A stretch of DNA of 64,000 nt. It comes from Chloroflexota bacterium (GTDB lineage: Bacteria > Chloroflexota > Dehalococcoidia > Lucifugimonadales > UBA3495). Made by a program: the position numbers and the translations under genes. The notes beneath the pieces were generated by a model. The model ran no database searches. It was not told where the DNA came from and was given only the letters and a program-made list of their open reading frames with translations. Positions within the stretch are counted from its first letter, which is position 1. Each line of letters begins with the position of its first letter. Below, in pieces: positions 25,678 through 33,233 of this stretch. Where the stretch lies: assembly GCA_027623675.1 (NCBI GenBank), contig JAQBVF010000002.1:103195-167194 (forward strand), read 5' to 3'.

Positions 25678-26508
25678 TCAGCGTCCGAATCGGGCTGCCA
25701 ACTCGGTGTTGCCCGACACGAATACCCGCTTGTTGGCCAGGGCCTCATCCATGCTGCCGCGCCCGTAGACCAGCAGCAGGAATGTTTGAGTGTCGCAGCC
25801 AAAGACCGCGTCGGGACGTTTATCGCTGGCCGACTCCATCAAGGCCTTCTGCCCGCCGCCGGCGACAATGTCATAGCTGCCAGGCGCCGCGCCGGTCAGT
25901 TCAAAGCGGAACCTGCCGGATGAATCCAGCCTGGTCCCTGGGTCGAATAGCCGTCCCACCACGAAAACAGGGAGCATCTCCATGATGGCCGGGAGGCTTG
26001 CCGCGGACAGGGCCGCATCCGCTTCCAATCTCGAACGGAAATCCCATTCGTGGACGATCAGTTCGGTGAGGCGCAGGTCCAGATAGGTCCCCACGGAGAT
26101 GGTGCCGGCGGGGTGGTAGCAGGGTTTGTCATTGTCGGCGTCGGTCAACCCGGACAGCGATTCATCGAAATTCACCTGGCTCTGATTAAAGGTGGACAGT
26201 AGATCGCCGCCCAAGCTAACGCGGTAGTCTATGGTCAATCGGGCATTCGCCCGCAACCTGGCCTCCATGTCGCCCACTCCCGCCGGCGGCATGCCATCGG
26301 GAGCGGAGGAGTCTCCGCCTGCTCCCCGTATGATGTTGGGTACGTACCGCTCAACCGCCCCGGCAAGGTGGGCCACCACGTCCTGGACCTCCCAGGCGTC
26401 GCAGGCGCTGGGAGTTGACCAGGCGGCGGGCGGCAGCGTTTTCAGGTATCTTCCGATCCGCTCCGTTTCGTCTTTGACCAACCGCACCTTCTCAAGTACC
26501 GAACCCAT
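25678..26508 (-). CDS. Maleylpyruvate isomerase-like (MDMPI/DinB superfamily) protein with an SCP2-like C-terminus
   Basis: 'WSTPSACDAWEVQDVVAHL' and 'ELIVHEWDFR' (H...HxxD metal site). Confidence 0.8.
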   Translation of the reverse strand: MGSVLEKVRLVKDETERIGRYLKTLPPAAWSTPSACDAWEVQDVVAHLAGAVERYVPNIIRGAGGDSSAPDGMPPAGVGDMEARLRANARLTIDYRVSLGGDLLSTFNQSQVNFDESLSGLTDADNDKPCYHPAGTISVGTYLDLRLTELIVHEWDFRSRLEADAALSAASLPAIMEMLPVFVVGRLFDPGTRLDSSGRFRFELTGAAPGSYDIVAGGGQKALMESASDKRPDAVFGCDTQTFLLLVYGRGSMDEALANKRVFVSGNTELAARFGR

Positions 26509-30551: not shown

Positions 30552-30609
30552 GGGCCGGTCCGGTATGGTAGAACCGGGGACCGGTCCGCCTGAGTAAATC
30601 AGTCCAGTT

Positions 30610-30833
30610 TCTGCAGTCGTCCTAGGGATAAGACGGGACTCGACGTGGATCTATTCGTCTCAACCGACACCATCGCTTTCCACAAGGTCTGGATGGGAAT
30701 GGCATCTTTCGCCGAATGCGCCGATGCCAAGCTGATCGAATTGGACGGGTTGACCGCCCACGTTGCCGCCTTCCCGGCGTGGTTCAAATTAAGTGGCTTC
30801 TCCGGGGTGGAACCGGCGCTCGGCTCCGCCTAG
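30610..30833 (+). pseudogene. Probable remnant: C-terminal domain of an HxlR-type winged-helix regulator
   Basis: 'GLDVDLFVSTDTIAFHKVWMG....LIELDG....AAFPAWFKLSGF' resembles the C-terminal domain of long HxlR regulators as I recall it. No HTH part or RBS is present. Confidence 0.45.
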
Positions 30834-31028
30834 GTCCGTCGGGTCCGACCGGCCCCTTGATTCTCAACGGGTACGATGGTGAGATTCCATACGTGTGGCA
30901 GGCGCAGTGGTAACGTGCTAAACTGGCGCATCACAAATATTCGCGTCTAGGCACATCCGTGTGCAAATCATGGGCGCGGCCTCGGGGCGCACCCTGAGCG
31001 TGCGCAACCTCAGGTAGAAGAGGTCTTT

Positions 31029-33233
31029 TTGCTCCGCATCTACAACACCTTGGCCAAACGCGTGGAAGAAATCCACCCCACCACCGCCGGACTCATCCAG
31101 ATGTACACCTGCGGCCCGACCGTGTACCGCGACGCCCACATCGGCAATATGCGGACCTATCTGATGGCCGACTGGGTGCGCCGCTCCCTGATCCACAGCG
31201 GCCTTGAAGTTACCCACATCAAGAACATCACCGACGTTGGCCACATGCGCCAAGAGTTGGTCGAGGCCGGCGGCGACAAGATGCTGATGGCAGCCCTGGC
31301 CGAGGGCAAGACCGTCCAAGAGATCGCCGATATGTACGCCGGCCGGTTCTTCCGTGACGAGGCCCGCCTCAACATCATGGAAGCCACAGTGTTCCCCTGG
31401 GCCAGCCACCACATCCCCGAGATGGTCTCCATAGTGGAGTCTCTAGTGGCCAAGGGCCACGCCTATGAGAAGGGCGGCAACCTGTATTTCGACGTCCCTT
31501 CCTTCCCCGGCTACGGCAAGCTCTCCAACAACACCGGCTCGGACCTGCTGGAAGGCGTCCGGTCCGAGGCCGACCCGCTGAAGAGCGACCCCCGGGACTT
31601 CACCCTGTGGAAGGCCGCGGAACCGGGCCGCGACCTGAAATGGGATAGCCCTTGGGGGCCCGGTTTTCCCGGCTGGCACATCGAATGTTCAGCCATGGCC
31701 TCCAAGTATCTGGGAGAAAGTTTCGACATCCACACGGGCGGCGTCGATAATATCTTCCCTCACCACGAAGACGAGATCGCCCAGAGCGAAGCTGCCTTCG
31801 GCAATCAACACGTTAATTACTGGATTCACGCCCAGCATCTGCTGGCCGACGGCGCCAAGATGGCCAAATCTGGCGGCAATGTCTTCCTCATCGAGGAGCT
31901 TATCGAGCGGGGTTTCTCTCCGCTGTCTTTCCGATACTTGTGTATGACGGTGCGGTACCGGCACCGAATGAACTTCACTTTCACATCGCTGAAAGCAGCG
32001 GAAAAAGCCCTGACCGGCCTTAGGCACCGGGTCTGGCTCTGGAGCCAGGAGCCGGAGGCAGGCGGCTACGAGGCCCAGATCGAAGAATACCGGCGGCGGT
32101 TCTGGGAGCATGTGGAGTCCGATCTGGACCTGCCCAGCGCTCTGGCCATGACCTGGGAAATGGTCCGCTCTGAGCTGCCGGGCCGCGCCAAGATGGCCCT
32201 GCTGCTGGAGTTTGACCAGATGTTTGGCCTAGACCTGGACAAGGCCCCCGATGAGAACTTGGTGGCGCCGGACGTCACCGCTACCCTGACCGCCCGTGGC
32301 GAACACCGGGAGAAGGCCGATTACTCCGCCGCGGACACCATTCGGGGTCAGCTGGCCACAGGCGGGTACGTGGTGCAGGACACGCCCAACGGAACGCTAG
32401 CCCGCCCCAAGACTCCCCTGGAGTTACGGCAGGACAAATGGGTGTCGGTATCGTCGTCGCGGGAGGTGGAGTCCTACCTGAATGAACCAGCCGACCTGGA
32501 TTTCACATTCATCTTGAACGCCTACGGATACCCCGGCGACGTCAAACGTTGTATCGAGAGCATGCTGACCCACGCCGGAGACCACTCGGTTGAGGCCATC
32601 GTCATCGACAATGGTTCCACCGACGGTACGGGCGAACTCCTTGAGGAGATGCAGGGTGAGCATTCCAATCTTCGAGTGGTCCACTGCGACCACGTGATCG
32701 GAGACGCGGCCAGCAAGAATATCGGACTGATGCAGAGCCGTGGCCGCAACATCGTGGTCATGGACGGCTCGGCAGAGATCACCGGAGATATCCTCAGCTC
32801 CATAGCCCAGAAGCTGGACGATCCTACCGTGGGCATCTTCGGCCCCTGGGGACTCAGTACCGGCGACATGCAGCATTTCCACGAAGAAGTCGAGGACGGC
32901 GACGCCGATGCCATGCAGGCCTATTGCATGGCCTTTCGCCGCGAATCCGTGAACACCGTTGGGCTGATGCGGGAGTGCTTCCGGTTCTACCGCAACTTGG
33001 ACATCGACTACTGCTTCCAGTTCAAGGACAAAGGCTACAGGGTGGTGGCCGATTCCTCGCTGCCCCTGGTGCGGCACGAACACCGCCAGTGGACCGAGTT
33101 GGACGACAACCAGCGCGACGAGCTAAGCCGGAAGAATTTTGGCCGATTCCTGAAGCGCTGGGGCAACCGGCCCGACCTGTTGATCGCCGCCGACGCCGTT
33201 GGGTTCGAGAACCAGCAAAGGTTCCATCACTAA
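31029..33233 (+). CDS. cysS: Cysteine--tRNA ligase fused to a C-terminal GT2 (GT-A fold) glycosyltransferase domain
   Basis: CysRS part: 'CGPTVY..AHIGN', 'GFPGWHIECSAM', 'FPHHEDE', 'KMAKS', and anticodon helix 'DYSAADTIR..L...G..VQD...GT'. GT2 part from about 32499: 'IVIDNGSTDGT', 'FRFYRNLDIDYCFQ....GYRV'. Confidence 0.9.
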   Translation: MLRIYNTLAKRVEEIHPTTAGLIQMYTCGPTVYRDAHIGNMRTYLMADWVRRSLIHSGLEVTHIKNITDVGHMRQELVEAGGDKMLMAALAEGKTVQEIADMYAGRFFRDEARLNIMEATVFPWASHHIPEMVSIVESLVAKGHAYEKGGNLYFDVPSFPGYGKLSNNTGSDLLEGVRSEADPLKSDPRDFTLWKAAEPGRDLKWDSPWGPGFPGWHIECSAMASKYLGESFDIHTGGVDNIFPHHEDEIAQSEAAFGNQHVNYWIHAQHLLADGAKMAKSGGNVFLIEELIERGFSPLSFRYLCMTVRYRHRMNFTFTSLKAAEKALTGLRHRVWLWSQEPEAGGYEAQIEEYRRRFWEHVESDLDLPSALAMTWEMVRSELPGRAKMALLLEFDQMFGLDLDKAPDENLVAPDVTATLTARGEHREKADYSAADTIRGQLATGGYVVQDTPNGTLARPKTPLELRQDKWVSVSSSREVESYLNEPADLDFTFILNAYGYPGDVKRCIESMLTHAGDHSVEAIVIDNGSTDGTGELLEEMQGEHSNLRVVHCDHVIGDAASKNIGLMQSRGRNIVVMDGSAEITGDILSSIAQKLDDPTVGIFGPWGLSTGDMQHFHEEVEDGDADAMQAYCMAFRRESVNTVGLMRECFRFYRNLDIDYCFQFKDKGYRVVADSSLPLVRHEHRQWTELDDNQRDELSRKNFGRFLKRWGNRPDLLIAADAVGFENQQRFHH

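Follow-up and report, generated by a model that had tools for sequence, protein, structure and literature searches.

A 64,000-nucleotide stretch of a Chloroflexota bacterium genome (assembly GCA_027623675.1, contig JAQBVF010000002.1, positions 103,195 to 167,194 of the forward strand; hereafter the window, whose own numbering is used below) carries one uninterrupted open reading frame (ORF) at 31029..33233 (+), which encodes a 734-amino-acid protein in which a paralogue of cysteinyl-tRNA synthetase (CysRS) is followed by a glycosyltransferase (GT) domain. This fused gene probably points to an undescribed transfer of sugar that is linked to the tRNA for cysteine. The frame opens with TTG and includes its stop codon, the start is backed by an N-terminal LRIYNTL motif conserved in the alignment, and the opposite strand is closed by many stops. 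The features of the gene are as follows.

31029..33233 (+): whole gene, CysRS paralogue, CysS_C and GT2 domain (ORF read, Pfam, NCBIfam)
31012..31023 (+): purine-rich, Shine-Dalgarno-like stretch aggtagaagagg (read from the sequence, just 5' of the TTG)
31074..32003 (+): class-I CysRS catalytic domain, residues 16-325 (Pfam PF01406 tRNA-synt_1e, E 1e-96)
31230..31280 (+): 'type-2' CysRS insertion TDVGHMRQELVEAGGDK, residues 68-84 (alignment with other CysRS)
32004..32264 (+): CysRS helical region from the catalytic domain to CysS_C, residues 326-412 (TIGR00435 match, alignment)
32265..32390 (+): CysS_C anticodon-binding domain, residues 413-454 (Pfam PF23493, PDB profile match)
32391..32498 (+): ordered linker with a conserved SSS-x-E-V-x-S motif, residues 455-490 (alignment; AlphaFold block with a predicted local distance difference test score, pLDDT, of 82-96)
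32499..33194 (+): GT2/GT-A glycosyltransferase-like domain, residues ~491-722 (Pfam PF00535, alignment, AlphaFold, Foldseek)

Residues 2-457 match the NCBIfam cysS equivalog TIGR00435 at 410.2 bits, where the cut-off is 340, and the NCBIfam MshC model TIGR03447 reaches 211 bits, below its cut-off of 485.1. CysS_C scores 23.6 bits (PF23493, cut-off 23) and the GT part 51.8 bits over residues 495-607 (PF00535 Glycos_transf_2, cut-off 23.3), and no DUF2156/GNAT-type aminoacyl-tRNA transferase domain occurs among the Pfam matches of the protein. The CysRS motifs lie at residues 28-31 (CGPT), 37-40 (HIGN), 216-220 (WHIEC), 244-247 (PHHE) and 277-281 (KMAKS), and those of the GT part at 526-534 (IDNGSTDGT), 578-581 (MDGS) and 656-660 (NLDID). 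CGPT, WHIEC and PHHE, the zinc/cysteine-pocket motifs, align with their counterparts in other CysRS and presumably contain the ligand residues. A preliminary description of this DNA had read a single 734-residue ORF with a CysRS followed by a GT-A domain; the ORF, Pfam and NCBIfam bear this layout out, and every motif that it quoted, MDGS and NLDID included, was found in its place.

The fused CysRS is a non-housekeeping paralogue. The genome of the window (a 48-contig assembly that is 91% complete, for which gene absences are provisional) also holds a separate cysS of 494 amino acids that adjoins ispF on contig C8 and scores higher against PF01406 (407 bits, versus 327 for the fused protein), and separate full-length CysRS genes also occur in genomes G111, G165, G287, G307, G331, G363, G051, G027, G001 and G203. 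The preliminary description had proposed looking for such a second copy, and had named as the deflating outcome a sole housekeeping CysRS with an unconserved GT domain; the better-scoring cysS beside ispF leads us to reject the former, and the GT domain is conserved (see below). Judged by its motifs, the CysRS part is intact at all catalytic and tRNA-binding positions, and charging of tRNA-Cys is predicted for the fused protein. Flags for in-frame TGA codons in the housekeeping cysS of the genus were match-extension artefacts, all four of the ORFs checked being free of stops.

Evolutionarily, an alignment of 27 CysRS-type sequences revealed a 'type-2' signature, consisting of HIGN, an 11-residue insertion after NITDV, GFPGWHIEC and GGVDNIFPHHEDE, which is common to the fused proteins and some stand-alone CysRS; canonical CysRS and MshC-like proteins are without the insertion. 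Since no full-length stand-alone CysRS other than a type-2 (HxGN) enzyme was found in G111, G138 and G233, type-2 represents a real CysRS lineage. A tree against CysRS and MshC, also suggested at the outset, places the fused CysRS parts in one group (support 86/96), which is sister (86/76) to CysRS paralogues that adjoin separate GT genes in one Chloroflexota family; one stand-alone type-2 CysRS falls outside the fused and neighbour group (100/99), and canonical CysRS together with the ~400-residue MshC-like ligases make up the other half of the tree. Of the 16 fused sequences in the alignment, 15 keep every catalytic motif. The remaining one, P0127 (a 745-residue representative on one 143,750-bp contig), reads DINQ for HIGN, PDIEC for WHIEC and KMATR for KMAKS, with no such decay in the CysS_C and GT motifs. 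It stands alone as a lineage, its nearest relatives, 50% identical, having normal motifs, and degenerate CysRS forms are thus a weak sign of a scaffold role. As a separate observation, G165, which carries the fusion and an MshC-like gene, has a stand-alone canonical-type CysRS (L038:671-2254, minus strand) with KVAHS at the KMSKS position.

The CysRS-GT pairing is conserved across Chloroflexota. More than 120 protein clusters (90% clustering) share at least 76% identity with the fused protein over its full length, where named at all they are called 'cysteine--tRNA ligase' from the SAR202 cluster or Chloroflexota, and some fused relatives lie on contigs of several Mb, complete chromosomes among them. 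With the GT part as query (E ≤1e-10), matches were found in 118 of a sample of 401 Chloroflexota genomes, among which, by manual count, ~45 hold the match in an open frame of at least 700 codons (taken as the fused form), ~38 only in frames of ~260-545 codons (the short form) and ~10 hold both; these counts include genomes flagged as unpublished, such as G344, on which no conclusion rests. A profile scan of one genome per GTDB species, with a 12-sequence alignment as query, returned at least 592 loci, the best 80 of which are all from Chloroflexota (labelled Dehalococcoidia, SAR202, Anaerolineae, Chloroflexia and Limnocylindria) and comprise 68 full fusions, five cut or split ones and seven without a CysRS part in the ORF. 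Within the order, the fusion is present in 18 of the 19 genomes of the window's genus (its own included), and it was found in five of the 12 families besides the window's own. Same or related fusions on so many contigs, including 68 of the 80 best species loci, exclude a chimeric assembly, and the worry in the preliminary description that the fusion might be missing from relatives was not borne out by the architecture and taxonomic searches that it had called for.

Structurally, the GT part is confidently predicted to adopt a GT-A fold. With the 43-sequence alignment described below as input, AlphaFold2 models residues 405-734 with a pLDDT of 93.3 and a predicted template modelling score (pTM) of 0.84, and the segment that joins CysS_C to the GT core is not of low confidence. 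Foldseek retrieved GT-A enzymes only (E ~1e-14), as did a profile search of PDB sequences (E 6e-18), with WrtF, GalNAc-Ts, PcManGT and K4CP among the matches; the first 50 residues of the same module match residues 412-459 of E. coli CysRS (1li5/1u0b) by profile. The structure prediction envisaged in the preliminary description thus returned a clear GT-A fold. In an alignment of 43 diverse sequences of the GT family (A1), R507, G558, G605, R638, D658, H683 and N703 are invariant, and N564, E583, G586, G608, F617, R655 and S700 are at least 90% conserved. Because seven residues are invariant across these 43 sequences, the domain is under selection, and the earlier suspicion that it might be unconserved does not hold. 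Asp658 of NLDID, in the 'ED' region, is present in 43/43 and equated with the catalytic base by motif position only. The DxD position reads D-G-S in the window protein and D-x-S in most relatives, has no Asp in some, and is followed two residues later by a conserved Glu; the first nucleotide-binding Asp varies among relatives.

The GT domain also has a constant partner. All 13 short GT relatives examined begin with CysS_C (PF23493 E ≤0.01; nine of the 13 above the cut-off), further short CysS_C-GT forms with the same layout occur in complete genomes, and CysS_C stands directly before the GT family in each of its three architectures: as a pair on its own, behind a CysRS paralogue, and behind a peptidase-S51-like domain. 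The last comprises ~49 clusters of 576-617 residues, some bearing JGI names such as 'GT2 family glycosyltransferase/cyanophycinase-like exopeptidase'; loci of this type are L113:810-2537, L049:2730-4625, L141:5591-7570 and L142:5974-7773 (all plus strand), and DUF1684 lies directly downstream of the S51-CysS_C-GT gene in 3/3 loci. There is, besides, a large family of S51-like plus CysS_C proteins without GT (340-420 residues), found in 112 of the 401 Chloroflexota genomes, mostly in other families than the GT family, and not found in the window's genome. Within ~4.3 kb of 17 S51-type loci there is no PIG-L, GT4 or MshC-like gene, and a thiol-cluster setting for these genes is accordingly rejected. 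In four loci (L021, L020, L043 and L117, from three genomes of one family and one Chloroflexia genome), a CysRS paralogue of the same clade as the fused CysRS parts adjoins a separate short GT gene on the opposite strand. ESM Atlas also contains clusters named for the CysS_C and GT domain pair, mostly from Chloroflexota; one such cluster is commonest in Actinomycetota, which we record as a lead. A 778-codon ORF from a Candidatus Limnocylindria metagenome-assembled genome (L108:2567-4900, plus strand) has CysS_C at 476-519 and then GT, and its first ~475 residues match neither Pfam nor the CysRS profile; this part is either a fourth kind of partner at the N-terminus or the result of an ORF that runs on spuriously through GC-rich sequence.

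Within CysS_C, R423, R427, D436, R439 and D451 are invariant in 13/13 stand-alone CysRS, in 63/63 S51-CysS_C proteins and in 25 short GT proteins, save that R439 is kept in 22 of the 25. Such invariant charged residues point to a conserved ligand, not a mere scaffold, and we read the pattern as CysS_C putatively keeping the anticodon loop of tRNA-Cys as its ligand in all three contexts. Judging from the architectures, CysS_C and GT together are a conserved and mobile evolutionary unit.

Our best reading, though a tentative one, is that the fused protein is a glycosyltransferase targeted to tRNA-Cys by CysS_C and riding on a dedicated CysRS. The GCA anticodon and U73 are listed as identity elements (PMC8762117), and the anticodon site of CysRS lies ~70 Å from the active site (bioRxiv 10.1101/2025.02.14.638259). 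Functionally, CysS_C would dock the protein on the GCA anticodon loop, and the CysRS core would charge the same tRNA-Cys molecule. The GT domain, apparently packed against CysS_C through the ordered linker, would, given the ~70 Å separation, sit at the anticodon end of the tRNA and transfer a sugar to it from a nucleotide sugar. That the GT is fixed near the anticodon appears so from pLDDT and pTM only. With the GT apparently fixed to CysS_C in this way, a nucleoside of the anticodon arm would be the most likely target and the cysteinyl ester a less likely one, and the sugar may be an N-acetylhexosamine, which is suggested by a deacetylase gene that neighbours some of the fused genes. The short CysS_C-GT proteins would act in the same manner on tRNA-Cys charged by the ordinary CysRS. 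A broader form of this proposal, which we consider unlikely, would make CysS_C plus GT a tRNA-Cys-specific RNA glycosyltransferase module, with the attached CysRS or S51-like hydrolase working at the 3' terminus of that tRNA molecule. Where PIG-L follows, the sugar might, while still on the tRNA, lose its N-acetyl group and even receive a cysteine, much as queuosine receives a glutamyl group.

Several points weigh against a tRNA-directed glycosyltransferase. We know of no bacterial tRNA glycosyltransferase, and both tRNA binding and sugar transfer by the fused protein are predictions only. Because aragorn finds one tRNA-Cys(GCA) gene in the window's genome, there is no dedicated isoacceptor, and a second tRNA-Cys set aside for this enzyme is thus rejected within the 91% of the genome that is covered. 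The NCBI name for the small domain is 'CysS/YqeB C-terminal domain', which places a CysS_C-type domain in a further protein as well, one for which no tRNA binding is known. The absence of DxD, together with the varying first Asp, leaves the donor chemistry uncertain, and the GT domain might only bind its ligand rather than transfer it. Finally, a BshB-like GlcNAc deacetylase downstream of the fused gene, found in 13/80 loci, fits small-molecule thiol chemistry at least equally well.

This deacetylase brings in the neighbourhood of the gene. In 13 of the 80 best loci, the next gene downstream encodes, on the same strand, a PIG-L deacetylase, mostly after a gap of 83-136 nt (one of 261 nt, and one overlap of 31 nt), with BshB1 as its best NCBIfam match (~91-105 bits, cut-off 182.5), and this two-gene arrangement persists among changing flanking genes on either side. 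The 13 loci come from a single clade, within which the fused proteins are 64-97% identical; related genomes are not independent, and such neighbour counts overstate the support. PIG-L does not adjoin the fused gene in the window; a 62%-identical orthologue lies elsewhere in the genome, on contig C45.

It is this neighbour that mainly supports the chief alternative, which we regard as somewhat unlikely, namely a bifunctional, mycothiol- or bacillithiol-like enzyme that would yield a new low-molecular-weight thiol or another cysteinyl-aminosugar. Here the GT would make a GlcNAc-acceptor conjugate, a PIG-L/LmbE deacetylase would free the amine, and the CysRS part would ligate cysteine to that amine, with Cys-AMP as the direct source, in the manner of MshC, or by way of Cys-tRNA-Cys, so that the three chemistries of the known pathways would come together. 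A hybrid, in which Cys is passed from Cys-tRNA-Cys to an aminosugar, is possible. MshC is itself a CysRS paralogue. The window's genome has eight MDMPI_N genes (a family found in only four of 14 control genomes, those of bacillithiol or mycothiol producers), five PIG-L genes and an MshA-like GT4 gene that scores 342 bits over its full length, below the equivalog cut-off, and no BshC, GCS2, GshA, GshB, EgtD or MshC-like gene was found in this assembly, an absence that its incompleteness makes provisional. On the other hand, the CysRS part keeps all tRNA-binding domains, unlike MshC, and falls far short of the MshC model; CysS_C always precedes the GT, even in proteins without CysRS; the PIG-L adjacency is confined to one clade; and the fused GT is of family GT2 and not GT4 (MshA/BshA-type) as in the known pathways, a separate MshA-like GT4 being encoded elsewhere in the genome. 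When open-frame lengths were used to separate MshC-like genes in 31 relatives, an MshA-like gene was present in 31/31 and an MshC-like gene in 0/31, with or without the fusion, and the same gap exists in the seven of 12 sister families in which the fusion was not found. The idea that the fusion fills in for a missing MshC is thereby weakened: the gap is independent of the fusion, and a 'missing ligase' therefore does not single out the fused gene. MDMPI_N copy number does not track the fusion among the relatives either, and many genomes (for example G111, G165, G233, G138 and the f31 genomes) contain a distinct MshC-like ligase in addition to the fusion or the short form; a cross-table over the 401 genomes is unable to separate such ligases from canonical CysRS, which TIGR03447 also matches at 1e-90. 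The preliminary description had proposed an undescribed system linking cysteine to a sugar, with a low-molecular-weight thiol as one example. The general idea of a link between cysteine or tRNA-Cys and a sugar fits the evidence; the thiol reading gains from the adjoining PIG-L and the absent thiol genes, and loses from the constant CysS_C and from an MshC gap that exists regardless of the fusion. As an observation on the MshA-like GT4 locus itself (contig C17:70861-75969, or L163:4861-9966), the GT4 gene shares its upstream end with an overlapping GNAT (PF13480) gene and is followed, 2 kb downstream, by a BshB-like PIG-L gene.

Less likely again, and in our judgement quite improbable, is an ordinary second CysRS whose GT-like domain transfers nothing and instead tunes the supply of Cys-tRNA-Cys, for example in certain nutrient or redox states, by binding a nucleotide sugar or similar metabolite, or merely aids folding or oligomerisation. 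The degenerate DxD and first nucleotide-binding Asp would suit such a domain, as would the lack of a conserved sugar operon around the window gene and a CysRS part that is intact and above the cysS equivalog cut-off. Yet the seven residues invariant in 43 sequences, among them the presumed catalytic-base Asp, one His and three positions with Arg or Asn, look like an active site, and since the GT module also exists without CysRS, or with an S51-like domain, its role cannot lie solely in the regulation of an attached CysRS.

In the window, the fused gene has MgtC and CoA-transferase III genes upstream and MeaB downstream, with a GFO/IDH/MocA oxidoreductase and HPF also nearby, and these neighbours share no functional theme. 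The preliminary description had drawn attention to a thiol-dependent DinB/MDMPI enzyme about 5 kb away; the gene is indeed there, ~4.5 kb upstream at 25678-26508 (-), with 56 bits for MDMPI_N and 60.8 bits for TIGR03083 (cut-off 50), and its proximity holds as synteny at the level of the genus only. Across the best 80 loci, a CT398-like coiled-coil/zinc-ribbon gene is nearby in 34, being directly upstream and divergent in 26. A YqeY gene, whose putative tRNA-binding role would suit the preferred reading, lies immediately upstream of the fused gene in three loci of one family. No riboswitch or T-box was found, Rfam giving no match between 30000 and 34000 at permissive thresholds; the 477 bp that separate the MgtC gene from the fused one (30552-31028) thus have no Rfam match. 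For the window's genome, aragorn also reports an ATC-anticodon tRNA-Asp in addition to the usual GTC one, and a single tRNA-Sec on contig C23 (60570-60666).

In databases, the fused protein appears simply as a 'cysteine--tRNA ligase'; it is conserved in many Chloroflexota, including the abundant marine SAR202. If CysS_C plus GT is indeed a tRNA-Cys-specific RNA glycosyltransferase module, it would be, to our knowledge, the first bacterial enzyme to glycosylate a tRNA. A sugar placed on tRNA-Cys would constitute a new class of bacterial tRNA modification, and attachment of cysteine to a sugar, aided by tRNA-Cys, would instead constitute a new redox thiol pathway in Chloroflexota, whose thiol chemistry, as far as we know, has not been worked out. 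Fusions of aminoacyl-tRNA synthetases (aaRS) with enzymes have repeatedly revealed uses of charged tRNA outside translation, and the recognition of CysS_C plus GT as a mobile unit turns this into a directly testable hypothesis. A full-text literature search returned no published account of a CysRS-GT fusion or of a bacterial tRNA glycosyltransferase, and we found no study that describes the fused gene.

Compared with known systems, the fused protein departs from each in a defined way. Relative to E. coli CysS (1LI5/1U0B), whose full model (TIGR00435) it matches, it reads HIGN instead of HIGH, carries the 11-residue insertion GHMRQE..G.DK and a ~270-residue C-terminal GT module, and exists as a paralogue beside the housekeeping cysS. 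MshC is a CysRS paralogue with a function outside translation, and MshC-like proteins are common in Chloroflexota; these are ~400 residues long, have HLGH, and are without the helical bundle tail and CysS_C, whereas the fused protein keeps the helical region and CysS_C and stays below the TIGR03447 cut-off. With GT2 GT-A enzymes such as the chondroitin polymerase K4CP (2Z86), the fucosyltransferase WrtF (9OMM) and PcManGT (6YV7), it shares the fold and the N-terminal nucleotide-binding half, and by motif position its invariant Asp would correspond to the base of their 'ED' motif; in contrast to them, it lacks DxD, having D-x-S and then a conserved Glu, is preceded by CysS_C, and shows no membrane or processive features. 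In concept it resembles LysX (LysRS-MprF) and fungal ErdS (AspRS-DUF2156), in which a complete aaRS is joined to an enzyme that diverts its product from the ribosome; the partner in those proteins is a GNAT-like aminoacyl-tRNA transferase acting on lipids, and in the fused protein it is a GT-A domain, no such transferase domain being detected by Pfam. Related to the proposed RNA chemistry are precedents for tRNA modification by an aaRS paralogue and for tRNA glycosylation: GluQRS/YadB, which acts on an anticodon nucleoside and has neither an anticodon-binding domain nor a GT, and the eukaryotic queuosine glycosyltransferases QTGAL/QTMAN, which act on tRNAs with GUN anticodons and not on tRNA-Cys. 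Relatives in architecture are the S51-CysS_C(-GT) proteins, which have the same CysS_C with the same five invariant charged residues and, in ~49 clusters, the same GT family, behind an N-terminal cyanophycinase/PepE-like hydrolase fold instead of CysRS, and which make up an uncharacterised family in their own right.

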